Assembly (NCBI GenBank): GCA_013331415.1
Contig: DUGL01000188.1
Span: forward strand, 6,579 to 70,578
Direction: 5' to 3'
DNA from: Methanoregulaceae archaeon
GTDB lineage: Archaea; Halobacteriota; Methanomicrobia; Methanomicrobiales; Methanospirillaceae
Length of the DNA: 64,000 bases
Below, in pieces: positions 2 to 26,255 of the stretch; position 1 is the first letter of the stretch; every line of letters begins with the position of its first letter. Under the pieces are notes generated by a model that saw only the letters and a program-made list of their open reading frames with translations, was not told the DNA's origin and ran no database searches. Made by a program: the position numbers and the translations under genes.

Positions 2-1591
2 GTCTGGGGCGGGACGCCCCGGTATACCGGGTGGACAGATCTGACGGTCAACGACCGGGCGCTCCCACGGATCACGCTGTATGGGAGTGATGACCGGAGC
101 GGGAACGTCTATGTCTCCGGGTACGGGGTATACTGGGTTGCCTACGACACCACGGCACTGCTGGAGAGCGGCAGCAACCGGATCACGGCTGATACCAGTC
201 GGTTCGAGCCGGACAACAAGCTCGACGGCCGCATCTACTGTCTCGTGACCCTGGTCGCGGAACGGGATGCCACGGGGCTTACCACCCGCTACTTTGTCGC
301 GGAAGGGAACGAGAACCTGCATGGTGAAGGGTGGTCCGGGACTATCGAGACCACGAACGATGCATGCTCAGTCACCCTGCCGGTCGGTGAGATCCCGGGT
401 GTCCGGGCAGCCAACCTCACCGTCCTGACGCTGGCATCGACCCGGGGGGAACCAAGCTACGTGCTCTTCAACTCCCATGACCTGGGGCCGGATGTGGACT
501 ATCCCGGGTATCCTCCCGGGGTCAGGGATATCGCGGACGAGACCTCGTTCAATGCCGGGTTGTATGCCCCGGTCCCCAGCCGGTATGTGGATATCGAGGT
601 CTTTGATGTGCTCGCGCTCCTCCGTGAGGGCGAGAACACGGTCACCTTCCAGCGGGGACGCGATCTTTCCGGGGATGGTATGATCTCGGCCTCGGCAAAT
701 CCACCGGAAGGCGAGCACTACCTCCACCCGGTCCTCGCGATGCTCACCCTGGAGAGAGAGCGTGCATCTGTTTCAGGGCCGGACCTGGCGCTCTCTGGGA
801 TCGCGGTGCAGGATGCCCACGCGGGAGAGGAAGGAGCTATCATCATCACGATCCGGAACCTGGGGGCGTTCTCTCCCCTCCCGGCTGAGCTGCGGGTCCG
901 TATCGACGGCGACCTCCTCGCGACCCGGCAGGTCACGCTCGATCGGAGCGGACTCCAGCAGGCGGCGATCCCCTGGAGTCCTGGGGAGGGGAGCTTCGCC
1001 ATCCAGGCAGAGGTTGACATCCCGGGGGACAGCGATCCATCCAATAACCGGCACCAGACCATGGTCACGGTGGGGGGCCTCCCGGATCTTGCGGTCTCGC
1101 TGGAACCCCCCGTCCGCAGGGGAGACGCCGTCCAGCAGGGGGACCCCTTCCTCCAGGTCCTGACCCTCGCTGGGGCGATTGCGATCTCGCTCCTCTTCCT
1201 GGTCCGGCGGCCCCCGCAGGGCGGGAGACGGATGCTCGGCCTCCTCCTCTCCGCACTGGTCATCCTCGCCCTCCTGCCCCCCCCGCTTGCGCTGGTCCCC
1301 CCCGTTGCGGGGCAGGATACTTCGGCGCTCTTCCTCCTCCCGGTGACGGTTTCCAACCTGGGGGGGAGCGATGCCCCCGCCTTTGCGGTATCCATGTACC
1401 TGGATGGAGAACGGGTGATAACCAAGGAGTACCTGGACGGGATGCAGGCGGGTCGGACCGATCGGTCCGAGATACCCCTCTACACATCCCCCGGCAGCCA
1501 CCACCTGCGGGTCGTGATCGATGAGAATGGTCTGGTGAGGGATGCCGACCGGAGCAACAACAGCGCGGAGGCCACGTATGTCTTCACCTAG
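2..1591 (+). CDS. Surface protein, 5'-truncated by the window edge: end of a DUF3344-like A module, CARDB-like domain, two TM helices, second CARDB-like domain
   Basis: The frame is open from nt 2; track ORF 245..1591 begins at an internal GTG. LDGRIYCLVTLVAE resembles the FDGRIKxxTLVVAY motif of the A modules at 4507, 13847 and 19448. Two CARDB-like segments (IRNLGAFS...DPSNN and VSNLGGSDAPAF...DRSNN) are separated by the hydrophobic helices LTLAGAIAISLLFLV and MLGLLLSALVILALL. Confidence 0.7.
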   Translation, partial: VWGGTPRYTGWTDLTVNDRALPRITLYGSDDRSGNVYVSGYGVYWVAYDTTALLESGSNRITADTSRFEPDNKLDGRIYCLVTLVAERDATGLTTRYFVAEGNENLHGEGWSGTIETTNDACSVTLPVGEIPGVRAANLTVLTLASTRGEPSYVLFNSHDLGPDVDYPGYPPGVRDIADETSFNAGLYAPVPSRYVDIEVFDVLALLREGENTVTFQRGRDLSGDGMISASANPPEGEHYLHPVLAMLTLERERASVSGPDLALSGIAVQDAHAGEEGAIIITIRNLGAFSPLPAELRVRIDGDLLATRQVTLDRSGLQQAAIPWSPGEGSFAIQAEVDIPGDSDPSNNRHQTMVTVGGLPDLAVSLEPPVRRGDAVQQGDPFLQVLTLAGAIAISLLFLVRRPPQGGRRMLGLLLSALVILALLPPPLALVPPVAGQDTSALFLLPVTVSNLGGSDAPAFAVSMYLDGERVITKEYLDGMQAGRTDRSEIPLYTSPGSHHLRVVIDENGLVRDADRSNNSAEATYVFT

Positions 1592-2564
1592 GCGCGGGTT
1601 CCTGTTCTTCATCGGCTGCATGGCGCTTGCAGCCGTTGCCGGGGCGACCTATGCCGGGGACCGGCCCCTGGTAACCGCTTTTTCTGGAGACGGCCCGCTG
1701 CAGTACCAGTTCACGACCGGTGACAGCTCCTACCTCGGGGGGCTTGGGAGCAATGAGAACTATACGGCATCATTCTCCCTCGAACTCCCCGCTGGGGCGG
1801 AGGTCCGGTTCCAGCGGCTGTATGTGTACTGGGCCTGGAGCAACCTCAACCAGCGGCCGCTCTTTCCCGCGTTCCATGTCACCGATTCCCGGGATCCTTT
1901 GTCTGCCCTGGAGAGCGATGCCCGGTATGTAGACAGCAAGGGGGTGGTCGGCACCTATGACTTCTACTCAGGTACTGATGCGTATGCCATCCCCGCCCTG
2001 CTCCCTGGAGCGAACACGTGTACGGTCACGCTGGTACAGCGCGGCCCTCCCGGGAGCTCGGTCCTCCTCTACGGAATGGCCATCCTGGTGGTGTACGAGG
2101 AACCTGGTCAGCCTCGGCACGCGATCTGGGTCAAGGAAGGATGCGATCTCCTCTTCTCGAGTTTCGGGATCTCCCCGGAGATGGCTTCAAGCGCGATGAT
2201 CTTCGAGGGGAAGCTCCCCTCCGATGCGATTGAGGGCGCAACGCTCTTTCTCGTGGCGCCATCCGGCGGGCATTCCCGGGACCGCGACTTTGAGATCAAC
2301 AGTCTCCGGGTCAACTGGGTCGATGAGGAGCAGACCCCGCTCATGATGCGCACCATCTTCTCCCTGCTCTTCCCCAACTACCGGGGCAAGGAATGGTTCG
2401 ATATATTCCTCCCTGATTCCCGGACCCAGATTGGGTTTGAGACCCGGGAGATCAAGCCATTCCTCAAAAGGGAGAATAATCACGTTGTTGTCCGTGACCA
2501 GGGTGACTACCTGCAGCTCACGAATGCCGTCCTCGCGATCCGGACAGCAGGAGGATCTCCATGA
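1578..2564 (+). CDS. Secreted stand-alone DUF3344-like B-module protein
   Basis: ATG at 1578 gives a signal-like N-terminus, MSSPRRGFLFFIGCMALAAVAGA, and overlaps the upstream stop. The body (FQRLYVYWAWS, ARYVDSKGVVGTYDFYSGTDAY, LYGMAILVVYEEPG, IWVKEGCDLLFS) is collinear with the B modules inside the 10465, 13847 and 19448 proteins. Confidence 0.7.
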   Translation: MSSPRRGFLFFIGCMALAAVAGATYAGDRPLVTAFSGDGPLQYQFTTGDSSYLGGLGSNENYTASFSLELPAGAEVRFQRLYVYWAWSNLNQRPLFPAFHVTDSRDPLSALESDARYVDSKGVVGTYDFYSGTDAYAIPALLPGANTCTVTLVQRGPPGSSVLLYGMAILVVYEEPGQPRHAIWVKEGCDLLFSSFGISPEMASSAMIFEGKLPSDAIEGATLFLVAPSGGHSRDRDFEINSLRVNWVDEEQTPLMMRTIFSLLFPNYRGKEWFDIFLPDSRTQIGFETREIKPFLKRENNHVVVRDQGDYLQLTNAVLAIRTAGGSP

Positions 2565-3226
2565 CCGCGGGCATCCGGACCGAGTCCCTCTCCCGGCAGT
2601 TTGCAAACGGGGTCTGCGCACTCCGGGACGTCTCTGTCACCATCGCCCCCGGGGAGTTCGTTGCCCTCGTGGGGAGGAGCGGGAGCGGGAAGAGCACCCT
2701 GATGAACATCCTGGGGGGGCTCGACTCCCCCACCGCGGGATCGGTCTACCTGGATGGGGGGAAGGTCGAGTACCGTGACCGGAAGAGCCTGATCAATCTC
2801 CGGAGAACACAGGTTGGCTTCGTCTTCCAGCAGTTCAACCTCATCCCGACCCTCACCGCCCGCGAGAACGTTGCCTACCCCCTCCTCTTCAACTACCGGC
2901 CGGCAGAGGAACGGCGAGACCGGGCGCTCGGGCTCCTGGACTTGGTCGGGCTCTCGGAGCGGGCTGATCACCTCCCGCACGAGCTCTCCGGCGGGGAGCA
3001 GCAGCGGGTGGCGATTGCGCGGGCGCTGGTCTGCAGCCCCCGGATCATCCTTGCCGATGAGCCGACCGGGAACCTGGATTCGAAGACCAGTGCCGAGATC
3101 TACCATCTCATGCGCACGATCAACCAGGAACAGGCGATCACGTTCCTCGTTGTGACCCATGAGCGCGAGCTCGCGTCGTACTGCGACCGGACCATCCAGC
3201 TCCGGGACGGGATGGTGGTAGCATGA
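2561..3226 (+). CDS. ABC transporter ATP-binding protein, MacB/LolD-like
   Basis: Walker [10 protein letters not shown], signature LSGGEQQR, Walker [10 protein letters not shown]-loop VTHE. ATGA start/stop overlap with the upstream gene. Confidence 0.9.
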
Positions 3227-4443
3227 TCCAGAAGGAGGTGGATTTCCTGCGGCTCTCCGCCCGGCAGCTCCTGACCAAGCGCCTCCGCGTGGCGCTCACG
3301 GTGCTCGGTATCGCAATCGGGGTGGCGGCGATCATCGGGATTGTCGCACTCGGCGAGGGTATCCGATACCAGGCCATTGAGACGATCAGGACGCAATCGG
3401 ATCTCACCCTGATCGAGGTCTATCCGCGGACCGACCAGGAGGTTACCCAGCTGATCACCGCGGCCCGGGTGGACCAGTTCCGTGTGCTCCCCCAGGTGAC
3501 CGCCGTCGCCCCGGTCTTCACCGATTCCTATGCCACGAAACGGCAGACGTTCCTCCCGATCCTTGCGGTGAAGGCCGAGGAGATCGATCCGGTCCTCCGT
3601 CTCCGGTATGCCAGCGGCGTCGTCTTCTCACCCGGGGCGAACGAGGTGGTGGTCGGTGCGGACCTTGGTACCCTGCTCCAGCGAAACGAGGGGATCCGGG
3701 TCGGGGATACCTTCGTTGCGATGGTACGGGAGTACGATGTGCAGGGGATGCCAACCGACCGCGAGGTGCCGCTCACCGTGGTGGGGGTGCTCGCCGACCG
3801 GGATGACCGGTTCGACCGGGTGATGCTGATCGACCGGGAGACTGCCGCGATGATCCGGGGAGCCGACCAGGGGTATGATACGGTCTTTGTCCGGGTCGCG
3901 GACCCGGACCATGTCTTTCCCGTCGTGGACCGGATCACGATGCAGGGGCTCGATGCCCGAGGGGCATTTGAGCAGATACGGGCGGTCAACCAGTTCCTGG
4001 ATGCCATCCTGATCGTCTTCATGCTCTTTGCCCTCTTTGCCCTGGTGGTGGGCGGGCTGATGATCACCACCACGATGATCACCTCGGTATACGAGCGAAC
4101 GCGGGAGATTGGGATCACCATGGCAATCGGGGCCTCAGAGAACGATGTGATCCGGCTCGTGCTCTACGAGTGTCTGCTGATAGGGATACTCGGGGGGATC
4201 GTGGGAAGTATCCTTGGCGGCCTGTTCACCGTGGTGATGAACGCGGTCGGGAGGCCGTTCATCATCGCCCGGCTCGGCCCGGAGTTCTCCAGCATCTTCG
4301 GGAGCGAAATAGCCCGCCTCCCGCCGGATATGATCGTTGCCGGGATCGTGATAGCCATCGTCTTCTCCCTCGCTGCGGGTATCTATCCGGCCGTCAAGGC
4401 GACGCGGATGAACCCGGTGGAAGCGATCCGGTCGGGAGCGTGA
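3223..4443 (+). CDS. ABC transporter permease, FtsX/MacB-type with a large extracytoplasmic domain
   Basis: One N-terminal TM (LTVLGIAIGVAAIIGIVAL), a roughly 250-aa loop, then three C-terminal TMs with the FtsX-type segment ERTREIGITMAIGAS. ATGA overlap with the ATPase gene. Confidence 0.85.
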   Translation: MIQKEVDFLRLSARQLLTKRLRVALTVLGIAIGVAAIIGIVALGEGIRYQAIETIRTQSDLTLIEVYPRTDQEVTQLITAARVDQFRVLPQVTAVAPVFTDSYATKRQTFLPILAVKAEEIDPVLRLRYASGVVFSPGANEVVVGADLGTLLQRNEGIRVGDTFVAMVREYDVQGMPTDREVPLTVVGVLADRDDRFDRVMLIDRETAAMIRGADQGYDTVFVRVADPDHVFPVVDRITMQGLDARGAFEQIRAVNQFLDAILIVFMLFALFALVVGGLMITTTMITSVYERTREIGITMAIGASENDVIRLVLYECLLIGILGGIVGSILGGLFTVVMNAVGRPFIIARLGPEFSSIFGSEIARLPPDMIVAGIVIAIVFSLAAGIYPAVKATRMNPVEAIRSGA

Positions 4444-4506: not shown

Positions 4507-7500
4507 ATGAGTAAGAACAGGGAGGGTGAGGTGCGCCTGCGGGCGCCCGTGGTCCTGGCAGGCTGCCTGCTGGTCCTGCTCCTGGTGCTGCAGGCACCGG
4601 CGGCGGCCGATCCCTACGTGGGAGGGATCCCGCTCACCACGGTCCAGTCAGGGGTCGTATCCGGGGACCTGTTCATCGATGCAACGGTCCCCTCCTTTGG
4701 CCAGACCACGGTCACGAAGACGGTTGCGCTCCCCACCTCTACCCAGATCCGGTGGGCACGGCTGTACGTTGCCGTCTACTGCGGGCACATGCAGAACAAC
4801 TACAACGGGACAGTGACGGTATCACTCGACGGGAACGGGGACGGGACCTACGAGACCGTCCTGGGGACGGAACGGCTGGATGTCCCCTTCACCTACCTTG
4901 CCGATGGGGGGCCCGGGTACGAGACCGTGAACTCCCACACGAACCGGGTGACGAGCGACTACGTAATGTGGTACGACGTTGCATCCCGGATCACGTCCCG
5001 GAACCCGGGTATCCGGGTGGAGACCACCCGGCTGAACCCGAGCTTTGACGGGAGGATCAAGGCGGTCACGCTGGTGGTGGCGTACGATGACGGGGATGCC
5101 GACCGGGTCTGGTACGTCGTGAACGAGGGGCACGACTCCGATACCTACTACTCCGACGAATGGCTCGGCGAAGATTACCGGGGCGAGACGAGCTTCGATC
5201 TCTCCGGGCTGTCCGGGGAAATTGAGAAGGCCACGCTCAGGGTGAATCACCTTGCGAGCCAGGACGGGTTCTACCGGTTCAACCGGGATGACCTGGACGG
5301 GGGGCAGGTCCAGGGTCCGTACTTCGGGCACAACAGCTGGGATGTGACCGACCTGGTGCGACCCGATGGATCGAACCTCCTCTCCTATGACCGGTACGGT
5401 GCCACGGGGTCTGGTTTCGAGGGTCAGTTCTACAAGATCATCCTCGCAACACTTACCGTCCGGGAGGGGGCAGAGCCTGACGAGGAGCCGGACGAGGATG
5501 AGCGGGATGATCTATCGGGCAGTACGGGGGGCTCCGGCCCCGGCCCGGTCCCCCTGTTCGGGAACGGGTATGCCGGGCAGACCATCCCTGCAGCCCTCGC
5601 GGGGATGGTGAACGGGAGCGTCGCGGTGCTGGAGACAAGTGAGTACACGGACCTGATCCCGCCCGGGGAGTCCCGGGACTTCACCCTTGCCATCCCGCTT
5701 GAACCCGGTGCTCAGGCCCGCCTCGCCCGCCTTTCCGTGTATACGACCACGGGCCACCATGAGCGCACGAAGGAAGGGCTGGCGGGACCGGCACCCCTTA
5801 TCCTTGAGTACGGGGGAGCGGCCATCCCGGCTGCTGCCCATTATACGGACCGGAAGGGCTTTGGGGAGGATGACTATCCCGTCGAGACCTTCGTCTACGA
5901 TGTCCGGGACCTGGTACTGGATGCCGGGGAGTACACGTTCACGGTGCAGAATGCCGGGCGGGGGAACGAGGTGTTCGCCGTGTACGGGGGGATGCTCGTG
6001 ATCGCGACCGAGTCGGACGGGGGTGTGCCCACGCACTACTGGATTGCGGAGGGGAGCGATATCGTGCTCGCCGACCCGGCATCCGACACCACCACGACCG
6101 ATGCGACCACGGTCTTTACCTTTACCGGTGTCCCGGGTACGGGATCGTCCGGTCTCCTGTACCTGGTCAGCACCGCGACAAACGGCACCCCGGGCAGTGA
6201 GAACCGGGTCACCTTCAACCAGGGGGGATGGGATAATCTCCTGGCATGCGGCTCAGCGGTCTGCGTGGCCAGCCGCGAGGTCTCCGATCTCCTCCGGCCC
6301 GGGGAGAACGAGGCGACCATCCAGAGCTCTCTCAAACGCGAGCCGGGCGATTACCTCGAGAACAGGGGGGCGGTCCTGGTGGCGGTCCCCTATGATGCGG
6401 CCCGTGCCGGTCCTGCCCGGACGGCTCCACCTCCAACGGTCGCAGCGGAGCCGGAAGCGCCACCCGCCACCCTCCCGGTGTCTTCCGGGGAGCCCCGGGG
6501 AATCCTCGACTGGCTGTTCCGGTTCCTGTTCGGCCCCTTCCTGCCCGATCCTGTGCTCCCGGAAGAACCGGCACCCCAGACCGTCACCCTCCCGTCCGAG
6601 GTGACCCTGACCATCTTCACGGACCCCGAGGGGGCACGGGTCACGGTCAACGGTGCTGCATATGACGACCTCACCCCGCTGGCCCTGGTGGTATCCCGCG
6701 GGGAGCTCCAGCAGGTGACAGTGACCCTGGACGGGTACGACCCGTTCCGCACGGCCCTCGCACCTGCCGCAGATGCGGACCTGCACATCGTGTTCACGCC
6801 GTTCGTCCCGGATAAGCCGGCCCCGTCCGTCCTCTTCTCCCCTGAAAATGGTCGTCTTGGCGGGGTCTACGTGGAGTCGTACCCCTCGGAGGCGACCATC
6901 ATCGTTGACGGGCGGAAGACCGACCAGGTCACCCCCCGGGTGATCTACGGGCTCCGTGAAGGGTACCACACGGTCGGGGTGGAGAAGAAGAACACTGCAT
7001 ACCCGCCGGCACAGCGGGTTGCAGTCGGTGCCGGGACCATCGTCCCGGTCAGGTTCACCGATGGCGCAGTCTTCGCCCGGACGCTGGATATCACGAGCGA
7101 TGACGTTGCCGGTGCCTCCTTTACCGTGAACGGGGTCGGGCCGTCCCGGACGATCCCTGCCACCGAAGTCCCGGTCAGCGGCACCTACCCCTACCTCGTC
7201 ATCTTCCACGAGGGGTCCTACCTGTCCCGGACCGTGCACCCGAACCTGGCGTCCGGGTCGGTGATGCGGATCCGGACCGAGCCTGCAGACCGCGTCCCGC
7301 TCTCGGTCGTGGTCAGCTCCGACCCATCGGGGAGCGAGATATTCTTCGACGGGTTCCCGACCGGGCTCCGGACTCCTGCCGTTATCACGAACGTATCGCC
7401 GGGCCTGCACCGGGTCATGGTCCAGGCCCCGGGATTCCTTCCCAGTGAGCGGGATCTCCACCTGTACGACGTGGTAAACGACCTGATAGATGAGAAGGTC

Positions 7501-7734
7501 TTCATCCGGCTTGAGCCATACCCGCATGGCAGCCTGAACCTGACCAGCAGCCCGCCCGGTGCCCGGGTCTACCTCTCGGGCCGGAACACGGGCGAGCGGA
7601 CCCCGGTCACCCTCCCCTACCTCCCGATCGGGCTCTACTCGGTCCGGCTGCTCGGGGAGCACGAGTCCCGCACCTACGAGGTGGTGGTCACGCCGGGACA
7701 GGAGAAGGGCGTGCACGCGGTCTTCCCGGTGTGA
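4507..7734 (+). CDS. Secreted protein: DUF3344-like A module, acidic linker, B-like module, five PEGA-like repeats
   Basis: Start chosen at MSKNREGEV..LLVLLLVLQAPAAA (signal peptide), followed by DPYVGGIPLTTVQSG. A-module motifs present: WARLYVAVYCGHMQNNYNGT, NRVTSDYVMWYDV, FDGRIKAVTLVVAYDDGD. Linker EPDEEPDEDERDD. B-like motif YTDRKGFGEDDYPVETFVYDV. PEGA-like repeats: IFTDPEGARVTVNG, VESYPSEATIIVDG, FTVNGVGPS, VSSDPSGSEIFFDG, LTSSPPGARVYLSG. Confidence 0.8.
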   Translation: MSKNREGEVRLRAPVVLAGCLLVLLLVLQAPAAADPYVGGIPLTTVQSGVVSGDLFIDATVPSFGQTTVTKTVALPTSTQIRWARLYVAVYCGHMQNNYNGTVTVSLDGNGDGTYETVLGTERLDVPFTYLADGGPGYETVNSHTNRVTSDYVMWYDVASRITSRNPGIRVETTRLNPSFDGRIKAVTLVVAYDDGDADRVWYVVNEGHDSDTYYSDEWLGEDYRGETSFDLSGLSGEIEKATLRVNHLASQDGFYRFNRDDLDGGQVQGPYFGHNSWDVTDLVRPDGSNLLSYDRYGATGSGFEGQFYKIILATLTVREGAEPDEEPDEDERDDLSGSTGGSGPGPVPLFGNGYAGQTIPAALAGMVNGSVAVLETSEYTDLIPPGESRDFTLAIPLEPGAQARLARLSVYTTTGHHERTKEGLAGPAPLILEYGGAAIPAAAHYTDRKGFGEDDYPVETFVYDVRDLVLDAGEYTFTVQNAGRGNEVFAVYGGMLVIATESDGGVPTHYWIAEGSDIVLADPASDTTTTDATTVFTFTGVPGTGSSGLLYLVSTATNGTPGSENRVTFNQGGWDNLLACGSAVCVASREVSDLLRPGENEATIQSSLKREPGDYLENRGAVLVAVPYDAARAGPARTAPPPTVAAEPEAPPATLPVSSGEPRGILDWLFRFLFGPFLPDPVLPEEPAPQTVTLPSEVTLTIFTDPEGARVTVNGAAYDDLTPLALVVSRGELQQVTVTLDGYDPFRTALAPAADADLHIVFTPFVPDKPAPSVLFSPENGRLGGVYVESYPSEATIIVDGRKTDQVTPRVIYGLREGYHTVGVEKKNTAYPPAQRVAVGAGTIVPVRFTDGAVFARTLDITSDDVAGASFTVNGVGPSRTIPATEVPVSGTYPYLVIFHEGSYLSRTVHPNLASGSVMRIRTEPADRVPLSVVVSSDPSGSEIFFDGFPTGLRTPAVITNVSPGLHRVMVQAPGFLPSERDLHLYDVVNDLIDEKVFIRLEPYPHGSLNLTSSPPGARVYLSGRNTGERTPVTLPYLPIGLYSVRLLGEHESRTYEVVVTPGQEKGVHAVFPV

Positions 7735-7855
7735 ACTGGGACGCAGCGTGCCGGGGTCATGGTTGCAGCCTGCGGCCTATCCCTTCTATCCCGACCAGGG
7801 ATTCGAATGGCGCCCTCAGTGCCAGGTATCTCTCAAGTGATCATGGACCTCTTCA

Positions 7856-7907
7856 GCTGCAGGGGCGCACCATCCCGGTGACCATGAAGACGGAAGGAAG
7901 GGACCAG
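7856..7907 (+). repeat. Direct repeat copy 1 (52 nt): orphan copy of the MNT gene leader plus its first 8 codons
   Basis: gctgcaggggcgcaccatcccggtgaccatgaagacggaaggaagggaccag matches 8719..8770 at 47 of 52 positions, with a perfect 30-nt core. It encodes MKTEGRDQ and then diverges into a short unrelated tail. Confidence 0.85.
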
Positions 7908-7934: not shown

Positions 7935-8324
7935 TCAGTAGGTGATAACTGATAGGCCCGGTATCTTCTCAAAATGGCGGTCGCGGGTGATAATCTTCCC
8001 GTCATGACAGAGCGTAATTGCCGCGATTATCTCGTCAAAATCCCCGACCGGAGTACCGGCACGGCTGAGGCCCGCTGCGAGCCGGCCGTACACCTCGTAC
8101 ATGGTCTCGTCAACCGCCAGGACAGTGAACAGGTCCAGGACAGTTCTTGCTTTGACCAGGTTATCGCGGTTATCCGAAAGATACGCACCTTTCAACAGTT
8201 CCATTGCGGTGATTGCGGTGGTGGCGAGGGCAATCTCTTCCCGCTCGAAACCGGCAGAGAGCCGGAGTGCGCCGGCCTCCCGCCGCATCAGGTCGATCAC
8301 AAAGGAGGTATCCGCAACCGGCAT
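7935..8324 (-). CDS. vapC: PIN-domain toxin VapC
   Basis: 129 aa. N-terminal DTSFVID acidic residue, AMEL, DFDEIIAA and a C-terminal TRDRHF motif, typical of PIN/VapC. One-nt start/stop overlap with the upstream antitoxin. Confidence 0.85.
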   Translation of the reverse strand: MPVADTSFVIDLMRREAGALRLSAGFEREEIALATTAITAMELLKGAYLSDNRDNLVKARTVLDLFTVLAVDETMYEVYGRLAAGLSRAGTPVGDFDEIIAAITLCHDGKIITRDRHFEKIPGLSVITY

Positions 8325-8551
8325 CAGAACCGTACCTCGCGCATGCTGCTCTTCCGCATGGTGCGGGAAACCTTCTCGACATGGTCGGCAAGGTCTGAGC
8401 AGTCCCCCAGCTCTGCGAGGACCTCGGAGATCTTCCGCTTGACCGGATAATACTGCACGATCACCTCAGAGAAGCTCATCTTTTCATCTTTCTTCAGCGC
8501 CTTCAGCCGCTCGTATGCCTCCTCGGTGATGCTGATGGTTTTTGTGGCCAT
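8324..8551 (-). CDS. vapB: VapB-type antitoxin (small, helical)
   Basis: Internal ATG at 8551 gives the 75-aa [31 protein letters not shown].... Its size and its position directly upstream of and overlapping vapC support the call. Confidence 0.7.
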
Positions 8552-8718
8552 GATCAGTTCTGTGTATGTATGTGTATTTAATAATGCTCCGAACACCGGG
8601 CAGTGTCCCCGGGTCTTGAAAAAGGATAAAGAAAAATGGTCATTTCCCGCTTTTTTGCAAAACATTCTGATGGCCCCATAGAACGGGTTGGAGGGTGAAA
8701 CCTCCGGCATACTCTTAT

Positions 8719-8770
8719 GCTGCAAGGGCTAACCTTCCCTGTGACCATGAAGACGGAAGGAAGGGACCAG
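8719..8770 (+). repeat. Direct repeat copy 2 (52 nt), forming the functional 5' end of the MNT gene
   Basis: See 7856..7907. This copy continues into an intact nucleotidyltransferase ORF. Confidence 0.85.
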
Positions 8771-9142: not shown

Positions 9143-9146
9143 TACG

Positions 9147-18439: not shown

Positions 18440-19080
18440 GATCACGTGCAGCAGGAACTGGTACAGCCATGCTCGTTGCACTCATGGTCGCTCTGGCCCT
18501 TCTCGCCGCCCCGGCCCTCGCCGGGAACACCGTCACCATCACCGGTGAAGTCTTGGTTGCAGTCCCCCCTATCGCAGATTTTTCTGCTGACCCAACCTCA
18601 GGTACTGCACCGCTCGCGGTGCAGTTCTCGGACCTTTCCACAGGGGCAATCAACAGCTGGGCATGGGACTTTGACAATGACGGCACGGTGGACAGCACGG
18701 ACCAGAACCCGGTCTTCACCTACAGTTCTGCCGGCACCTACACCGTGAAACTCACGGTCACCGGCCCTGCTGGCAGCGATTCGCTGGTGAAAACCGATTG
18801 CATCACGGTGAATGCCCCGGTCCGCAGGCCTATCGCTCTCTTCACCCAGGATGCCTATGCCGGTACGGCACCCCTCACCGTCAAGTTCACCGACCGGTCC
18901 CTCTTCAACCCGACCCAGTACCTCTGGCGCTTCGGGGACGGTGCCACCTCAACAGAGAAGAGCCCGCAGCATACCTATACCAGCCGGGGGGTCTACCCGG
19001 TCCGGCTGGATGTCTCGAACGCTGCCGGGAGTTCAACTGCATGGAGTGTCGTGGTTGTGTTGCGGTACAGCTGGTGGTGA
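18436..19080 (+). CDS. Small secreted two-PKD protein with an aromatic C-terminal tail
   Basis: ATGA overlap with the giant gene. Signal peptide MLVALMVALALLAAPALAG, two PKD repeats (WAWDFDNDGTVDS; WRFGDGATSTEKSPQHTYTSRGVYPV), ending VVVLRYSWW. Confidence 0.8.
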   Translation: MRSRAAGTGTAMLVALMVALALLAAPALAGNTVTITGEVLVAVPPIADFSADPTSGTAPLAVQFSDLSTGAINSWAWDFDNDGTVDSTDQNPVFTYSSAGTYTVKLTVTGPAGSDSLVKTDCITVNAPVRRPIALFTQDAYAGTAPLTVKFTDRSLFNPTQYLWRFGDGATSTEKSPQHTYTSRGVYPVRLDVSNAAGSSTAWSVVVVLRYSWW

Positions 19081-19084
19081 AGGG

Positions 19085-19447: not shown

Positions 19448-22400
19448 ATGACTGTTATGACTAGAGCACGAAATCTCCGAGCGAAATCCGCAGCACTCGC
19501 CCTCCTGCTCGTCCTCTGCCTGGTGCCCGGCATCATGGCTGACGGGTATGTGGGCGGCGTACCGCCGGTAACGGTACAGTCCGGGACGGTATCCGGCGGC
19601 CTGTATGTCGATGCGGATCTCCCCTCATGGGGATCGCTTGATGTAACGAAGACCTTCTCTCCCATCCCTGCAGTACAGGATATCCCGTGGGCCCGGCTCT
19701 ACGTTGCGGTATACTGCGGCCACATGCAGAACAACTACAACGGGACCGCCACGGTCTCCTTTGACGGAGATGGAGATGGCACTTTCGAGACGATCCTCGG
19801 AACAGAAGACCTCGAAGTCGCCTACGTGTTCGTGGAAGACGGGGGCACCACGCCGGTCGTGGTCAACGACCACTGCAACCGCGTCACGAGCGACTACCTG
19901 ATGTGGTACGATGTCACCTCCCTGATCACGTCAACGACACCGAAGGCCCGGGTCGAGACCAGCCCGATCCATGGGAGCTTTGACGGCCGGATCAAGATGA
20001 TCACGCTGGTCGTCGCATACAACGATGGCAGTGCAGGCCAGGTTCACTACTGGGTGAACCAGGGGCACGATATAGACTCGTACTATGCCGATGGTGCCGG
20101 TATGCCCTATACCGGCCAGAGCATCTTTGACCTGTCCGGGGTGTCCGGGACTGTTGGATCGGCGGCCCTGACCGTCAACCACCTGGCGAGCACCGACGGT
20201 TCATATGCATGGTCCGGTGATCCTATTCCCGCCGATCCCTCCGGTGCCACAAATCCTCCCGGGAGCAGCTGGCAGGGAGCATTTTTCGGGTACAACATCT
20301 GGGATTTGACCGATCTGATCGAGTTCGGAGATGAGTACGACCTCACCTACGACCGGACCGATCAATTCTACAAGATCCCGCTCGTCACGCTCGCTGTCAG
20401 CGAGGCATCCCCGGTCTCAGACCTGGCCGTCACGTTCGTGAACCCGGACACCGGGAACGTCTTTGCCCTCGAGGAGAACCGCGTGCGTATCAACATCCGG
20501 AACAATGGCCCGGATGCATCGCCGGAGACCGAGGTCCGGCTCACCTCGACCGATGGGCTCGATGTCAGGGGCCCGGTCCACGCCATTGACCCGGGTGCGA
20601 CCATCCCGGTCTTCCTGATCGACCCGACCATCCGCCCGAACGAGGGGGGGGCCGTCACGTACACGGCATTCGTTGACCCGGACAACACCCTCGTCGAACC
20701 GAATGAAGCGAACAACAGTCTGGACAGCACGCCAAAGCCCGTGAAGTTCAACGGGTACAAGGGGAAGCGGTACTGGGAGGGGAAGAGCGATGTCACGACG
20801 AAGCGCACCTTCGATCTCCGAGGAGGCCTCCTGTACTCTGCAGGTGACAGCGTCTACCTGCCCGGCGGGGTTGGCGGAGGCGGCTGGTCGTCTTCAACCG
20901 TGACCTGGACGGGGAGTGACCTTGCGCTCCCTGCCGGGGCAACAGTCCGGGAGGCACGCCTCTATGTCCCGTACACGTGGGATGATGCCGGGCAGATCCC
21001 GGACCACTTTTCGCTCACGTTCAATGGGAGCGGGGTGACTCACGAGTACCACTATACCGACAAGAGCAATTTCGGTGGCTATGCCAACCACGTGTACGGG
21101 CTGCTCACCTACAATGTGACGGGCCAGTTCAGTCCGTCCGGCAACAGCGCCGTGCTCACGAAGGATGATGCGAACACCAACGCAGCACTGTACGGCCTCA
21201 CCCTTGCCGTGGTGTATGAGGATCCCACCGCAACCCGGAAACAGATATTCCTGAACGAAGAGTTCGACCTCCTCGGTGCGGACGCCACCATGTACGCGAC
21301 AACGCCGGAAGAGGCAACGGCGTACATCCCGTTCAGCGGGATGGTCGTCGCACCCGGAGAGGTCTCCGGCGCGGTCCTCACGACCTTCGTCCCGTCCGGG
21401 AACGGCCCCGAGGGCGACCTGCTCTTCAACGGTGACACCAGAGCGACCATGGTCTGGGACTACGGATCCACGGACGGAACCCAGGTTGCGGTGGACAGCC
21501 GGGACGTGACCGCGTACCTGCAGGCATCAGGAAACGAGGCAGGGATACGATCCACACAGGGGGCGACCCCCGCGATGGCCGCAAGCCACGCGTTCTTCGT
21601 TATCGATTACGCCGATACACCCCCGGTCGCCCAGTTCACCGCGAACACCACGTCCGGGACTGCGCCGCTCTCCGTCCAGTTCACCGACCAGTCCACCGGC
21701 ACAGTCACCACGTATGCCTGGGACTTCACCAATGACGGGATTGTGGACAGCACCGCGAAGAACGCATCGTTCACCTACTCCTCGGCAGGGACGTATACGG
21801 TGAACCTGACGGTGACCGGCCCGGGAGGAGCAGACAGCGAGGTAAAGGCGGGCTACATCACCGTGACTGCTGCCCCGGTTGCCCCGGTTGCAGCGTTCAG
21901 TGCAACACCGCTCGTGGGAGTGGCACCGCTATCCGTGACCTTCACCGATGAATCGGCCAACAACCCGACCGGATGGTCGTGGGAGTACAACGCCGGTACC
22001 GGCTGGGTCGGGTTCTCCACTCAGCAGAACCCTGTACAGGTGTTCCACGCGGCCGGACCCTACGACATCCGGCTCACCGTGAACAATGCAGCGGGAAGCG
22101 ACACCGAGACCAGGTTGCACGACATCGCGGTTGCAACCGGGATCGAACCCATCGTAAATTCCGGGAGCGGCACGGTGACCGGTGACCTGTTCGTCGAATC
22201 CCCGCTGGTATGGCCTGCGACGGAAGTAACCCCTGCCTTCACGCTGCCTGCCGCTGCGGTGGGGAACATCGAGTGGGCGAGGCTGTACGTCACCACATAC
22301 TCGGGTTCGGCGCAGAACACCTATGCACTCACCTCGACGGTTACGCTGGACGGGACCATCCTTGGAGTCGAGACCATGGACATTGCGTCCGAGACCAACG

Positions 22401-25363
22401 GCAACTCGTACCCGCTCAATGACCATGTCACCAAGGTGTACTCTGACTATGAAGCACAGTATGATGTGACGGGCCTGATCACCTCTGCAAGCCCGGTCGT
22501 CAACGTGAAGAGCGAGGCGATTGACGGAAAGAATTTCGATGGCCGGATCAAGGCAGTGACGCTGGTGGTCGCCTATGATGACCCCTCGTCTGCCACAGAG
22601 ACCCGGTACTGGGTGAACCACGGGCACCACTGGGCGAACCCCATGGACGGGCAGACCATCTTCGACACGACCGGTCTCCCGGCCGGATGGGTCAGCGCCG
22701 AGAGCGGGATACGTGTCCTCTCGGCCGGCGACGCCGCGTACAGCTTCAACGGCAACCCGAAAGCAGGCCAGGCCGGAAATAACTGGAATTACGATACCCT
22801 GAACACCTGGGATGTCACCGGGGACATTACCCCGGGAGCATCGAGCACGCTCGCCTATGCCCGGAGTGGTGCGTACAAGGCAACGCTCGCCACCCTGAAA
22901 GTGAGCTATGCCGGTGCTCCCGCTGCAGGGTTCAGCGTAAATACGACGAGTGGTGCCGCACCGCTCCCGGTTCGGTTCACGGATGAATCCACAGGGGATA
23001 TCTCGGACTGGTCATGGGTATTTGGTGATGGAGGGACTTCCAGCGAGAAGAATCCTGCCCACACGTACACCACCCCCGGCACGTACACCGTGAACCTGAC
23101 GGTCACCGGTCCGGGCGGGTCGGACAGCGCGGTGGAGACAGACTTCATCACCGTGACCGGAACTGACCTCCCCGACCTCGTGATCACGCAGATTACCCCC
23201 AATGGAAACGAGCTCTTTGCGCATGAGTCCAATACCATCAATGCAACAGTGAGGAACAACGGCACGGCAGCCGCGGGACCGTTCTCTGTCCGGATCGACG
23301 CAGCGGGGTCATTGTACGATGCTGCCCTCTCTGGCCTGGCCGCAGGCGCCCAGCAGGAAGTACAGGTAACTGACACCACGCTGCGGACTGCTGGTGATAG
23401 TGTCACCATCACCGCGACCGCGGACCCTGACCTCGCAGTAGCAGAATCCAACGAGACCAACAATGCCCTCTCCATCACGAAGACCGTGATGAGCAACGGA
23501 TACAAAGGGAAGCGCTGGACCGATGGGAATGACATCGAGACGGTGGCGACCTTCGAAGGACGGGTGGGGATGGCATACTCGACCGGCGATGCCGCTTACC
23601 GGGCTGCGGGATGGACCGGTGCGACCACAAACTGGACCGCTTCAGACCTGCCCATACCCGGGACTGCGACCATCCTCCTTGCCCGCCTCTACCAGGGGTA
23701 CACCTTCGACCAGACCCCCGGCGGCACCCCGGTCTGGACTATGACCTTCAACGGCCAGCAGGTCACCCCCGATGCCCTGTACACGGACCGGAAGGGCTAT
23801 GGCTCGTTCAACTACCCCTCGGGCCTCTATGCCTACACCGTGACCGATCTCTTCTCTATGACCGGGAATGCGGCCTCGGTCACCCCTGGTGCCGGGAACA
23901 ATAACGGCCTGTACGGGAGCTACCTCCTGGTGATCTACGAGGATGAGAACGAACCGGTCCGGAAGATCTGGATCAACGAGGAGTGCGATCTCCTGTACTC
24001 GGGGACCACCCGGTTCGTCTCGGATGAGGAGGCAACCTCCTCTGCACCGTTTGCAGGGGCTGGCGTGGACGGTCTCGATGAAGCCAGGGTCCTCGCCATC
24101 CTCTTCTCTGCAAACGAGGCAGGGAAGAGTGTATTCATCTTCAACGGGCAGGATTACGGCGACCTCTCGCCCGGGTTCCTTGCCGGGCCCCAGGTGACGC
24201 TCTCGGAATTCGATGTCACGGGCAGCGTGGTGAGCGGGGAGAATTCTGCCCTCTTCCGGAGCGTGATGGTGGGTGCCAGCGGTGACAACATGGTTGCCGC
24301 AGGGGCAGTACTCATCACCGAGTACGCCGAGGATGCACCGGTCGCAGCGTTCACCGCAGACCCCACCAGCGGCACTGCCCCGCTCCCAGTCCAGTTCACC
24401 GACGGGTCAACCGGGACGATCACCTCGAGGACCTGGGACTTCGGGGACGGTTTCACCAGTTACGACCAGAACCCGGTCCATACCTATGTGGATCCCGGCA
24501 CGTATTCCGTGAACCTGACGGTCACCGGGCCCGGTGGCTCGGACAGCGAGGTGAAGACCGGCTACATCACAATACCTGTCCAACCTGTTCCACCAGGTGC
24601 CGGATTCACGGCTGATCCCACCGATGGCACTGCCCCGCTTCCAGTCCAGTTCACCGATGAGTCAACCGGGACGATCAGCTCGTGGACCTGGAATTTCGGC
24701 GATGGTTTCACCAGTCACGACCAGAACCCGTCGCATACGTACACCGTACCCGGCACCTACACCGTGAATCTCACGGTCACCGGCCCCGGTGGATCGGACA
24801 GCGAGGTGAAGACCGGCTATATCACCGTGACCGCCCCGCCCGGAGAGATTGTGGCAGACTTCGTTGCCGCACCCCTCTCCGGGTCCCGGCCTCTCCTCGT
24901 CCGCTACACCGACCAGTCCACCGGACTGATCACCGCGTGGGCCTGGGACTTCAACAACGATGGCCGGGTGGACAGCACCCTGCAGAATCCCACTCATGCC
25001 TATTTCCTGCCGGGCAGCTACACCGTCCGGCTCACGGTGAGCGGCCCGGACGGGACAGATGAAGAGGTCAGGAAAGGATATATCACCGTGACCGAACCAG
25101 CGAAACGCCCGTTCGCCCGGTTCACCCAGGACAACCGGTTCGGGGTCGCCCCCCTCACCGTCCAGTTCACGGACCGATCGATGAACAGCCCGGACACCTA
25201 CCTCTGGAGTTTCGGTGACGGGACCACGTCATCGGAGATGAATCCGGAGCACACCTTCGGGCTCCCGGGATTGTACCGCGTCAGCCTCACCGTCTCGAAT
25301 GATGCGGGGAGCGGCAGCACATCCGGGTATGTCGTGGTGCGCAGGCCATGGGGATTCTTCTGA
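19448..25363 (+). CDS. Giant (1971 aa) secreted protein: A, CARDB, B, PKD x2, A, PKD, CARDB, B, PKD x4 with an aromatic C-terminal tail
   Basis: Signal peptide followed by DGYVGGVPPVTVQSG. Collinear with the 13847 protein over roughly the first 1250 aa. It then carries a CARDB-plus-B block collinear with the 10465 protein. The last ~190 aa are homologous to the stand-alone two-PKD proteins and end VVVRRPWGFF. Confidence 0.85.
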   Translation: MTVMTRARNLRAKSAALALLLVLCLVPGIMADGYVGGVPPVTVQSGTVSGGLYVDADLPSWGSLDVTKTFSPIPAVQDIPWARLYVAVYCGHMQNNYNGTATVSFDGDGDGTFETILGTEDLEVAYVFVEDGGTTPVVVNDHCNRVTSDYLMWYDVTSLITSTTPKARVETSPIHGSFDGRIKMITLVVAYNDGSAGQVHYWVNQGHDIDSYYADGAGMPYTGQSIFDLSGVSGTVGSAALTVNHLASTDGSYAWSGDPIPADPSGATNPPGSSWQGAFFGYNIWDLTDLIEFGDEYDLTYDRTDQFYKIPLVTLAVSEASPVSDLAVTFVNPDTGNVFALEENRVRINIRNNGPDASPETEVRLTSTDGLDVRGPVHAIDPGATIPVFLIDPTIRPNEGGAVTYTAFVDPDNTLVEPNEANNSLDSTPKPVKFNGYKGKRYWEGKSDVTTKRTFDLRGGLLYSAGDSVYLPGGVGGGGWSSSTVTWTGSDLALPAGATVREARLYVPYTWDDAGQIPDHFSLTFNGSGVTHEYHYTDKSNFGGYANHVYGLLTYNVTGQFSPSGNSAVLTKDDANTNAALYGLTLAVVYEDPTATRKQIFLNEEFDLLGADATMYATTPEEATAYIPFSGMVVAPGEVSGAVLTTFVPSGNGPEGDLLFNGDTRATMVWDYGSTDGTQVAVDSRDVTAYLQASGNEAGIRSTQGATPAMAASHAFFVIDYADTPPVAQFTANTTSGTAPLSVQFTDQSTGTVTTYAWDFTNDGIVDSTAKNASFTYSSAGTYTVNLTVTGPGGADSEVKAGYITVTAAPVAPVAAFSATPLVGVAPLSVTFTDESANNPTGWSWEYNAGTGWVGFSTQQNPVQVFHAAGPYDIRLTVNNAAGSDTETRLHDIAVATGIEPIVNSGSGTVTGDLFVESPLVWPATEVTPAFTLPAAAVGNIEWARLYVTTYSGSAQNTYALTSTVTLDGTILGVETMDIASETNGNSYPLNDHVTKVYSDYEAQYDVTGLITSASPVVNVKSEAIDGKNFDGRIKAVTLVVAYDDPSSATETRYWVNHGHHWANPMDGQTIFDTTGLPAGWVSAESGIRVLSAGDAAYSFNGNPKAGQAGNNWNYDTLNTWDVTGDITPGASSTLAYARSGAYKATLATLKVSYAGAPAAGFSVNTTSGAAPLPVRFTDESTGDISDWSWVFGDGGTSSEKNPAHTYTTPGTYTVNLTVTGPGGSDSAVETDFITVTGTDLPDLVITQITPNGNELFAHESNTINATVRNNGTAAAGPFSVRIDAAGSLYDAALSGLAAGAQQEVQVTDTTLRTAGDSVTITATADPDLAVAESNETNNALSITKTVMSNGYKGKRWTDGNDIETVATFEGRVGMAYSTGDAAYRAAGWTGATTNWTASDLPIPGTATILLARLYQGYTFDQTPGGTPVWTMTFNGQQVTPDALYTDRKGYGSFNYPSGLYAYTVTDLFSMTGNAASVTPGAGNNNGLYGSYLLVIYEDENEPVRKIWINEECDLLYSGTTRFVSDEEATSSAPFAGAGVDGLDEARVLAILFSANEAGKSVFIFNGQDYGDLSPGFLAGPQVTLSEFDVTGSVVSGENSALFRSVMVGASGDNMVAAGAVLITEYAEDAPVAAFTADPTSGTAPLPVQFTDGSTGTITSRTWDFGDGFTSYDQNPVHTYVDPGTYSVNLTVTGPGGSDSEVKTGYITIPVQPVPPGAGFTADPTDGTAPLPVQFTDESTGTISSWTWNFGDGFTSHDQNPSHTYTVPGTYTVNLTVTGPGGSDSEVKTGYITVTAPPGEIVADFVAAPLSGSRPLLVRYTDQSTGLITAWAWDFNNDGRVDSTLQNPTHAYFLPGSYTVRLTVSGPDGTDEEVRKGYITVTEPAKRPFARFTQDNRFGVAPLTVQFTDRSMNSPDTYLWSFGDGTTSSEMNPEHTFGLPGLYRVSLTVSNDAGSGSTSGYVVVRRPWGFF
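24356..24865 (+). repeat. Tandem near-identical PKD-coding units (2 x 255 bp)
   Basis: ADPTSGTAPLPVQFTDGSTGTITSRTWDFGDGFTSYDQNP.. versus ADPTDGTAPLPVQFTDESTGTISSWTWNFGDGFTSHDQNP... Long identical runs such as ggacagcgaggtgaagaccggcta occur in both units. Confidence 0.8.
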
Positions 25364-25613
25364 AGACCCCTCCCTCTTTTTCCCCCGCATGATTCCTCCA
25401 GTGTCCGGGACCATGATCAACACTACGAAGGTATCGGCAGGATAGAGGTGCGGGAACCTGCGCACCTTCCTTCCGGCGGGATTACCCGGATGGAACAATT
25501 CATCGGGAGCCTGTGCCCGGAACGATGCGTGGCAGAATCAGGTCTCACCGTTCTCCGGGAGCATATCTATATGAGGAGGTACTCCCAGTTACGTAGTATG
25601 AGAGGGTGAAAAG

Positions 25614-26255
25614 ATGTCAAATAATCTTACGATTCAAAAATACGTCATACTCTTCCTGCTCATATCTGCACTGTCCTGCATCTCCCTTGCGGACTCCACC
25701 CTCCACATCACCGGGGTGATTGAACCAGTTCACGGACCCGTTGCCAACTTCACCGGTTTCCCGCTCTCGGGCAGCGCTCCGCTCATCGTCCGCTTCACCG
25801 ACCAGTCCACCGGCCCTGTCACCGCGTGGGCCTGGGACTTTGAGAATGACGGCCGGGTGGACAGCAGGCTCCGGAATCCTCTTACCGTTTACCGGAATCC
25901 CGGGACCTATTCAGTCCGCCTCACGGTCTCGGGGCCTGACGGCAGCGGTGAACGGACCAGGGAGGACTACATCACCGTCACCATCCCGGTAAGACCACCG
26001 GTGGCCCGCTTCTCCCAGGATACCCGCTTCGGGTTTGCCCCCCTCACGGTCCGGTTCACCGACCGGTCAATCGGGAACCCAACGAGCTACCTCTGGACAT
26101 TCGGTGACGGGGCAACCTCGACTGCGGCCAACCCTGTCCACACCTACCTGGATCCCGGGTTCTACCGGGTCAGCCTGCAGGTGAGCAATGACGGCGGGAC
26201 CTCGACTGCCGGCGGGATGGTGGTCGTTCTGCGACCATGGTTCAGGCCATTCTGA
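25614..26255 (+). CDS. Small secreted two-PKD protein with an aromatic C-terminal tail (paralog of 18436..19080)
   Basis: Signal peptide YVILFLLISALSCISLA, two PKD repeats, ending VVVLRPWFRPF. Homologous to the C-terminus of the 19448 protein. Confidence 0.8.
   Translation: MSNNLTIQKYVILFLLISALSCISLADSTLHITGVIEPVHGPVANFTGFPLSGSAPLIVRFTDQSTGPVTAWAWDFENDGRVDSRLRNPLTVYRNPGTYSVRLTVSGPDGSGERTREDYITVTIPVRPPVARFSQDTRFGFAPLTVRFTDRSIGNPTSYLWTFGDGATSTAANPVHTYLDPGFYRVSLQVSNDGGTSTAGGMVVVLRPWFRPF

Follow-up and report, generated by a model that had tools for sequence, protein, structure and literature searches.

The window analysed here is a 64,000-nucleotide (nt) stretch of contig DUGL01000188.1 (positions 6,579 to 70,578 of the forward strand, assembly GCA_013331415.1) from a Methanoregulaceae archaeon. 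The system in question occupies its first part, positions 2-26255, where eleven plus-strand genes (g1-g11, Table 1) form one set among the open reading frames (ORFs). A first-pass annotation, made from the letters alone, had described this region as a 26-kb island of surface proteins built from two recurring, always paired modules, A and B. The island of surface proteins was confirmed, but the region also encodes an ATP-binding cassette (ABC) transporter (2561..4443), two toxin-antitoxin pairs (7935..9587) and the protein g7. A signal-like hydrophobic segment was found at the N-terminus of every protein, consistent with the proposed surface location, and further membrane segments were seen only in g1, as an internal hairpin (residues 381-425 of the fragment in a hydrophobic-segment scan), and in g7, as its C-terminal tail. 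The sizes given earlier for the large proteins (1094, 1530 and 1971 aa) were right for g8 and g10, but g5 is 1075 aa long when read from its ATG and 1094 aa long when read from a GTG at 4450. The two largest proteins, g10 and g8, are 65% identical across 1145 aligned residues, and the small protein g9 shares 54-56% identity with g11 and with the C-terminus of g10.

Table 1. Genes and modules of the island at positions 2-26255 and of the insert between g5 and g6. Positions are those of the window; A, B, CARDB, PKD, PEGA and CT are domains.
Feature	Position	Strand	Content	Module positions (nt)
g1	2..1591	+	5' end cut by the window edge; A'-type DUF3344, CARDB, two-helix membrane hairpin, second CARDB	
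g2	1578..2564	+	signal peptide, lone B-type DUF3344 (B'); overlaps g1 by 14 nt	
g3	2561..3226	+	ABC ATPase of the LolD/FtsE/MacB type; overlaps g2 by 4 nt	
g4	3223..4443	+	type VII ABC permease, MacB-like extracytoplasmic core domain and FtsX; overlaps g3 by 4 nt	
g5	4507..7734	+	signal peptide, A, acidic linker, B, at least 4 PEGA repeats; membrane anchor absent	A 4597-5481; B 5554-6396
VapC (PIN)	7935-8324	-	toxin-antitoxin insert (Pfam)	
VapB	8324-8554	-	toxin-antitoxin insert (Pfam)	
MNT nucleotidyltransferase	8717-9142	+	toxin-antitoxin insert (Pfam)	
HepT (HEPN) protein	9135-9587	+	toxin-antitoxin insert (Pfam)	
g6	10465..12639	+	signal peptide, CARDB, B, PKD x2, CT	B 10900-11769; CT 12262-12636
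g7	12730..13686	+	signal peptide, two immunoglobulin-like (Ig-like) halves, PGF-CTERM-like tail PIPGFGALIAISGLACALFGALLIRKGGEG; no Pfam match above threshold	
g8	13847..18439	+	1530 aa; signal peptide, A1, PKD, CARDB, B, PKD domains, A2, PKD x2, CT (DUF3344 x3)	A1 13922-14851; B 15407-16291; A2 16790-17620; CT 18062-18436
g9	18436..19080	+	small secreted protein, PKD x2, aromatic C-terminal tail VVVVLRYSWW; overlaps g8 by 4 nt	
g10	19448..25363	+	1971 aa; signal peptide, A1, CARDB, B1, PKD domains, A2, PKD, CARDB, B2, PKD domains, aromatic tail VVVRRPWGFF (Pfam: DUF3344 x4, PKD x7, CARDB x2)	A1 19532-20437; B1 20741-21616; A2 22124-22954; B2 23486-24331
g11	25614..26255	+	small secreted protein, PKD x2, aromatic tail VVVLRPWFRPF	

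All 12 modules of the island belong to the family DUF3344 (PF11824), as had been supposed: Pfam places one stretch in each of g1, g2 and g6, two in g5, three in g8 and four in g10. The whole-protein scores (83 bits for g1, 181 for g2, 332 for g5, 175 for g6, 587 for g8 and 761 for g10) lie above the gathering score of 27.2 bits, most modules cover the full model (positions 2-275 of 275), and the isolated A1 module reaches 215 bits over that span. The CARDB, PKD and PEGA matches sit between the DUF3344 stretches, for instance in g1 (DUF3344 2.9e-23, CARDB 4e-18) and in g5 (DUF3344 twice, PEGA four times), and g2 is matched by DUF3344 at 4.4e-53. With custom profiles built for the two modules, g5 scored 406 bits for A and 211 bits for B, the B module of g6 scored 305 bits, and g2 scored 221 bits with the B profile and was not matched by the A profile. 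The closest named relatives of the modules come from Methanoregulaceae and Methanolinea.

The view that DUF3344 has no assigned function was borne out, and no family of established function was matched by A or B: NCBIfam holds no named model for DUF3344 proteins, single-protein and profile searches of the Protein Data Bank (PDB) returned no sequence relative of A, and a Pfam scan of 54 A sequences at E <= 1 did not find a second family. In the literature searched, nothing functional was found on DUF3344/PF11824, on MacB/FtsX in methanogens, or on PDB entry 4h3w, a fold neighbour described below. A screen for fibrillar adhesins lists about 3,400 UniProtKB and 9,700 MGnify matches to DUF3344 and files it, as cluster 23, under 'ambiguous function', as a candidate adhesive domain whose possible catalytic role is left open (PMC9210967), and a further study flags the family as a likely surface protein (PMC9674854). 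Our own estimate of family size from a search of a representative library (6,370 matches at E <= 1e-3) was discarded as unusable, because the profile contained PKD columns from sequence tails; its top matches served solely for the counts of architectures given below. In other members of PF11824, too, the neighbouring domains are CARDB, PKD, PEGA, dockerin and beta-helix, and at the level of the family the island does not differ from them; what is added here is the division into A and B, their ordered pairing, the ABC cassette and the trio of g6, g7 and g8.

The division into A and B is real by identity groups: A modules are 40-72% identical to each other and B modules 21-65%, but A and B share only 14-22%, and in single-sequence searches A queries returned only A and B queries returned only B. 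They are nevertheless not unrelated modules. Profiles of A and B are homologous over 253 columns (hhalign probability 98.8%, E 7e-17), and MAFFT aligns the two end to end. Judged from their sequences, A and B are paralogues of long standing, sister subfamilies within a single domain. The strict A motifs were found in g5 and twice each in g8 and g10, and the B motifs in g6, in g8 and twice in g10, with a relaxed form in g2 and g5, in keeping with the motif sets described earlier, but the strict A motifs are absent from g1. Neither pairwise identity (19-24% to all the other modules) nor custom-profile scores (41 bits for A, 48 bits for B) assign the module of g1 clearly to one group. When its 40 full-length orthologues from related loci (about 600-650 aa) were compared profile against profile, they were nearer to A (178, E 3e-25) than to B (124, E 1.5e-17), and the module lies directly after the signal peptide, as A does, and keeps the motifs WAR.Y, DGR and Y.(V/I)..GN/H. 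On this profile comparison g1 remains with A, as assigned earlier, in a divergent form (A'), low-scoring A' modules being hard to class. In the alignment of the 54 A sequences, 13 columns do not vary at all and 34 are conserved at 90% or more, many of them charged or polar, including D3, E94, H116, R119, S122, D123, D153, R155, K157, N178, H181 and D182. The conserved set of B is NGYKGKRY, YTDR..G, VVYED, NE..D.L and EEATA.

To follow the pairing beyond the window, we scanned about 154 loci with the custom A and B profiles, about 74-76 of them from reference genomes (seeded on A) and 78 from metagenomes (seeded on B). The searches for related loci were run separately for A and for B; a joint A+B alignment contained no conserved stretch. 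When the next module on the same strand was recorded, A was followed by B 124 times in the genome loci and 117 times in the metagenome loci, and by A only 9 and 14 times, so that B was the successor of A in 124/133 and 117/131 cases; B was followed by A 86 and 77 times. Most A modules of at least 100 bits had a B within 4 kb downstream (68/76 in genomes and 84/87 in metagenomes, or 89-97%), and this was also the case after clustering of A at 80% identity (71/81 clusters, 88%). Among the large proteins, represented by one member of each 50%-identity cluster, both modules were present in 86/110, the commonest orders being AB (42) and ABB (10). In shorter proteins A is nearly always the first domain past the signal peptide, and B is usually directly preceded by CARDB. 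The pairing is real, directional and old: the A-then-B order is kept in about 154 loci outside the window, and A and B do not occur independently of each other. The stronger claim that the modules are always paired did not hold, as the pairing is neither one-to-one nor universal.

The pairs come in several formats. In the island A and B share one chain in g5, g8 and g10, lie on adjacent overlapping genes in g1 and g2, and are spread over two chains in the case of g6 and the tail of g8. Within their own polypeptides, neither the B of g6 nor the second A of g8 has a partner. Among the relatives are stand-alone A proteins of 306-320 aa, which are common in Methanoculleus; in these nothing follows the module and there is no anchor. 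The B' proteins, of which g2 is one, consist of a signal peptide and the module only, with a mature N-terminus, A(T/S)YAGD(R/K)PL, shared among orthologues. The A' proteins, of the g1 type, have a conserved membrane hairpin between two CARDB domains, and many stand-alone CARDB-B proteins end with a PEF/PGF-CTERM-like tail or a dockerin. A soluble member of one type thus stands beside an anchored member of the other, a pattern that would be expected if A binds B.

Some observations on individual relatives may be added. In digester metagenomes a type I dockerin is present on some A-only and CARDB-B relatives (P0004, P0057, P0093, P0142, P0143, P0193 and P0196-P0198), which implies that in some archaea these proteins are attached to cohesin-bearing scaffolds. 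In a Methanosarcina siciliae locus (L004; CP009507.1, 2892779-2910308) there is no ABC cassette beside the modules, A is joined to PF27237 (AF_1625_C), and B ends proteins made of NosD/beta-helix, PKD and CARDB domains. A-type modules, among them those of proteins P0099, P0103 and P0119, were also found on short contigs binned to bacteria (Spirochaetaceae, locus L076; Bacteroidales; Anaerotignum; Cloacimonetes) or to Nanohalarchaeota (L057), and these may reflect either mis-binning or horizontal transfer.

Since the earlier description left it possible that the modules are generic Ig-like spacers, their predicted structures were of interest. The AlphaFold2 model of g10 residues 29-723, which comprise A, CARDB and B (84-sequence alignment), had a mean predicted local distance difference test score (pLDDT) of 94.6 and a predicted TM-score (pTM) of 0.71, and the model of the g8 A1 module alone (54 sequences) had a pLDDT of 94.3 and a pTM of 0.92. 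In these models A and B are both all-beta domains of about 290 residues with two lobes (about residues 1-165 and 170-295 of the module). A module so modelled is a compact and rigid unit of the two-jelly-roll kind and, also in view of its many invariant polar residues, not an Ig-like spacer. The pTM of 0.71 for the 695-residue A-CARDB-B model exceeds what would be expected of freely hinged domains and suggests a defined arrangement of the three.

Foldseek comparison of the A model with the PDB gave weak matches (E 1e-5 to 1e-3, TM-score 0.25-0.33, root-mean-square deviation 10-20 A). The neighbours were 4h3w, a secreted Parabacteroides protein of unknown function, PNGase F (3pms, 1png and 1pnf) and PNGase Bb (9vla), followed by alpha-L-rhamnosidase, GH86, GH172/DUF2961, meprin, a phage baseplate protein and double-jelly-roll capsid proteins. 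The three-domain model had multidomain matches of low TM-score, including the CARDB structure 3idu and the N-terminal region of GH2 enzymes (sugar-binding plus Ig), and in the viral library the matches were mycobacteriophage minor tail proteins and generic jelly rolls of tails and capsids. With PNGase F, other two-jelly-roll proteins and the GH2 N-domains the modules share two all-beta lobes in about 300 residues, at a Foldseek probability of up to 1.0; they differ from PNGase F and the two-jelly-roll proteins in that the TM-score is only 0.25-0.33, the root-mean-square deviation 15-20 A and identity about 10%. For the N-glycanase domains of PNGase F-like amidases, no Pfam match was found besides DUF3344, and the structural TM-scores were only 0.29-0.32. 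As far as the models go, the fold neighbours lean towards sugar-handling and receptor-binding proteins, and they indicate nothing beyond the fold class.

The first five genes form an ABC transporter cassette. Genes g1 to g4 overlap one another (Table 1), and g5 follows within 64 nt. Pfam matched g3 to ABC_tran (1.4e-37) and g4 to MacB_PCD (9e-22) and FtsX (5.6e-19), and the PDB sequence matches of g4 were MacB, YtrF, LolC/E and LolF. The best NCBIfam models of g3 were LolD, YbbA, FtsE and MacB, all under their equivalog cut-offs, and none of the cut-offs compared was passed by g3 or g4 (LolD 230 bits against 308, FtsE 214 against 265, lolCE 82 against 362, MacB 81 against 966, FtsX models 22-38 against 225-255). 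By these matches, g3-g4 is a type VII ABC transporter of the MacB/LolCDE/FtsEX superfamily, but not LolCDE, FtsEX or MacB proper. Like the known transporters of this type (MacB, LolCDE, FtsEX and YtrEF), it combines an ATPase, g3, with a four-helix permease, g4, carrying MacB_PCD and FtsX, and, as in FtsEX and MacAB, the transporter shares an operon with extracytoplasmic proteins. It differs from them in that its partners are DUF3344 proteins, with no adaptor, outer-membrane factor or lipoprotein substrate. B' was considered as a lipoprotein substrate of the Lol type and rejected, since its orthologues have no conserved lipobox Cys.

Among the loci seeded on DUF3344 modules, the order B'-ABC-permease was found in 31/76 genome and 25/78 metagenome loci, and the full string of A'/B, B', ABC, permease, A and B in 25 genome and 10 metagenome loci; the order A', B', ATPase, permease, A-B(-PEGA) was also seen on Methanoculleus contigs. 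Orthologues of g5 come after the permease in every complete cassette. The cassette occurs in Methanoculleus, Methanolinea, Methanoregula, Methanofollis, Methanocalculus, Methanogenium and Methanocella. A locus of Methanocella sp. PtaU1.Bin125 (L068, MVRA01000097.1) holds two to three tandem A'-B'-(ABC)-permease units in 16 kb; in one of these no ATPase gene was detected. Members of the MacB, LolCDE and FtsEX superfamily do mechanical work on partners outside the membrane: FtsEX acts on EnvC/PcsB and LolCDE on lipoproteins, and in known systems the MacB-type extracytoplasmic core domain touches partner proteins. As DUF3344 proteins share an operon with a transporter of this superfamily, they are suggested to be its partners or cargo.

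The genes g6, g7 and g8 form a second unit. The tails of g6 and g8 are 70% identical and comprise two PKD domains followed by CT, which is about 115 residues long and has no Pfam or PDB match. In related loci CT always lies at the extreme C-terminus of a DUF3344 protein, and it co-occurs with a g7-like gene (g7-like gene in 19/21 CT loci, CT in 19/20 g7-like loci). The g7-like gene starts within about 100 nt of the stop codon of one CT gene, and the second CT gene usually comes next. In all 11 distinct trios (that of the window and 10 others) both A and B are present, and in 8/11 the A and B modules nearest to CT are complementary. In the window g6 ends with B-PKD-PKD-CT and g8 with A2-PKD-PKD-CT, so that the two stalks are of equal length, and these matching stalks with the shared CT account for the two modules that seemed unpaired on their own chains.

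The g7 protein has no PDB sequence relative in single or profile searches. Its orthologues are 56-72% identical to it; in them two Ig-like halves are followed by a conserved tail that combines PGF, a membrane helix and RKGG; the PGF motif is kept in most of the 14 orthologues listed, two of them being without the exact P-G-F triplet. PF18204 (PGF-CTERM) scored 13.4 bits in g7 and up to 16.6 in orthologues, the cut-off being 18.8. Apart from this anchor tail, the NCBIfam S-layer glycoprotein model of the order Methanomicrobiales found no match. The layout of the trio resembles that of WxL clusters, which are reported almost solely from Firmicutes and comprise one membrane-anchored WxLIP (DUF916-DUF3324-transmembrane helix) and two proteins with a strictly C-terminal WxL domain (PMC10599100, PMC9772566). 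In both, two secreted proteins with a C-terminal domain in common stand on either side of an anchored protein that has two Ig-like domains, and of the secreted two, one is small and the other large and rich in adhesin-type domains. The two differ in having no detectable sequence homology, in the host, which here is without peptidoglycan, and in the anchor, which is PGF-CTERM-like in g7 and a plain transmembrane helix in WxLIP. WxL (PF13731) was found in 0/19 CT sequences at E up to 10. WxLIP_PGBD scored 14-16.5 bits in g7 (cut-off 27.3) over model positions 62-111, a generic Ig-like motif, with no HBD match, and other Ig-like families scored g7 equally or higher. The possibility that g7 is a true WxLIP and CT a true WxL domain is thus unsupported by sequence, and we liken the g6-g7-g8 layout to WxL/WxLIP as an architectural analogy, not as membership.

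Between g5 and g6 the island is interrupted by two toxin-antitoxin pairs (Table 1), which we did not count to the surface system. At 8-12 kb the G+C content is 0.53-0.55, down from about 0.64. The insert is bracketed by the two copies of a 114-nt direct repeat (77% identical), one at 7643-7756 covering the 3' end of g5 and the other at 10048-10161 just upstream of g6, and a 59-nt repeat (88% identical; 7849-7907 and 8712-8770) brackets VapBC. This looks like a nested insertion of mobile toxin-antitoxin cassettes with duplication of the flanks. A HepT/MNT pair likewise ends the syntenic Methanoculleus locus L001. The aromatic tails of g9, g10 and g11 lie after the last PKD domain, at 19051-19080, 25334-25363 and 26223-26255. 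They were considered as a general sorting signal and rejected, since the pattern was confined to the window among 3,392 ORFs of at least 150 aa in the 154 related loci. Further downstream the window encodes a membrane platform of T2SSF type and an ATPase of T2SSE type, both type IV pilus-like assembly genes (35571-39072, minus strand), a 721-aa TPR protein (39030-41195) and an AAA/MoxR-like protein with a VWA domain (28809-30857).

The reading that we prefer, with a probability of roughly 0.45 and thus somewhat short of even odds, is that the island encodes A/B pairs acting as binding heads, carried by Ig-like stalks and docked to the membrane by an anchor, with a core set coupled to a transporter. 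A and B would associate as a hetero-pair and together would form the head that binds a ligand outside the cell, the likeliest being a glycan or another polymer of the cell envelope, with the PKD, CARDB and PEGA domains serving as the stalk that keeps the head off the cell. In the g1-g5 operon, an anchored A', a soluble B' and an A-B-PEGA protein would be joined to the type VII ABC transporter, which may release, assemble or mechanically act on DUF3344 proteins outside the membrane. The g7 protein would dock g6 and g8 to the cell via their CT domains. Such proteins would share with fibrillar adhesins (PMC9210967) the signal peptide, the long stalks of Ig-like repeats and a non-stalk head domain. 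They differ in that the DUF3344 heads are of two paralogous types in a fixed order, often internal rather than only at the tip, and in that most island proteins have no recognisable anchor, g1 and g7 being the only ones with an anchor of their own.

Several findings weigh against the reading of docked, paired binding heads. The pairing is not strict: B-B tandems are common (41 transitions in genome and 55 in metagenome loci), the orders BA (13) and BAAB (3) occur in very large proteins, and A stands alone in two loci (L019 and L066) despite long flanks. There is some redundancy among the scanned loci, and both custom profiles were made with sequences related to the window. In loci of Methanosarcina, Methanobacterium, ANME-2, Methanoperedens and Methanophagales, A and B are present but the cassette is not, which means that in general the modules do not depend on the transporter. 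The cassette association was viewed from loci seeded on DUF3344, not from the permease. The fold matches (TM-score <= 0.33) amount to little beyond 'jelly roll', which makes a glycan ligand a mere lean. No C-terminal transmembrane segment or sorting signal was found in g5, g6, g8 or g10, and neither g7 nor CT passed a Pfam threshold. Finally, the literature searched contained neither experiments on these proteins nor proteomic records of them.

Three other explanations were weighed. According to the one that survives best, which we nonetheless hold to be rather unlikely, the type VII transporter has the DUF3344 proteins of the core cassette as its extracytoplasmic partners or substrates and passes its ATP-driven movements to A'/B' and to the A-B-PEGA protein, and the large PKD-rich paralogues are secondary derivatives. 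This agrees with the overlaps of g1-g4 and the position of g5 directly after them, with the A'-B'-ABC-permease-A-B order kept across seven genera, with the MacB-type extracytoplasmic core domain of g4 and with the membrane anchoring of A' beside the transporter. It is weakened by the abundance of A and B in lineages and loci without the transporter, by the lack of a lipobox in B', which hence is not a Lol-type substrate, and by an association seen from the DUF3344 side and not from the permease side.

The unusually many invariant polar and charged residues, with two His and several Asp, Glu, Arg and Lys, might also belong to an extracellular enzyme, for example a glycan or peptide hydrolase or an amidase, with an active site in the inter-lobe cleft as in PNGase F. 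Such 'fibrillar enzymes' would remodel the glycosylated envelope of the cell itself or of a partner, A and B being catalytic and non-catalytic paralogues. However, the Cys and one His of the A motifs are gone in the internal A2 copies (GH to GS, DHC to DHV), the polar set of B differs from that of A, and no sequence match to an enzyme family was found in Pfam, NCBIfam or the PDB. PNGase F, PNGase Bb, rhamnosidase, GH86 and GH172 are among the best full-length fold neighbours, but at TM-scores of at most 0.33 a shared cleft geometry is unsupported. We regard the enzyme as unlikely, even though a catalytic role was left open for the cluster (PMC9210967). It is just as improbable that the modules are passive blocks of a strain-variable outer coat or matrix with no specific ligand, in which A and B alternate because an A-B unit was duplicated: the identity of g8 and g10 (65%) and of the g6 and g8 tails (70%) does show whole-unit duplication, architectures vary widely among relatives, and islands differ between strains and carry mobile inserts, but duplication alone explains neither the rarity of A-A steps (9 + 14 against 124 + 117 for A-B) nor the keeping of the A-then-B order by separate genes, the polar surface motifs strongly kept at 30-40% identity point to a specific site, and no S-layer glycoprotein model is matched except by the tail of g7.

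The paired binding heads of the preferred reading could be taken further, to an obligate A-B heterodimer head and an archaeal envelope machine not recognised so far, in which the type VII transporter would spend ATP on assembling, releasing or mechanically moving DUF3344 pairs outside the membrane, and g7 would dock chains bearing A and chains bearing B by way of CT. It would be the archaeal counterpart, convergent or very remote, of the Firmicutes WxL/WxLIP system. We consider this extended form improbable. The family itself is known, but in the literature searched we saw no description of its two subfamilies as ordered pairs, of the ABC cassette or of the trio of CT proteins and g7. DUF3344 is widespread, and some genomes devote tens of kilobases to it, yet it has no solved structure and almost no literature. 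The ordered sister forms, the link to an ABC transporter of the mechanotransmission type and the putative shared docking domain turn this anonymous domain into concrete, testable questions. If the trio works like WxL/WxLIP, the same logic of surface display would have arisen in organisms without peptidoglycan. Methanomicrobiales live in close contact with syntrophic bacteria, and little seems to be known about the surface proteins that would mediate this contact. An envelope machine of the kind outlined, if it exists, might serve cell-cell contact with these syntrophic partners.

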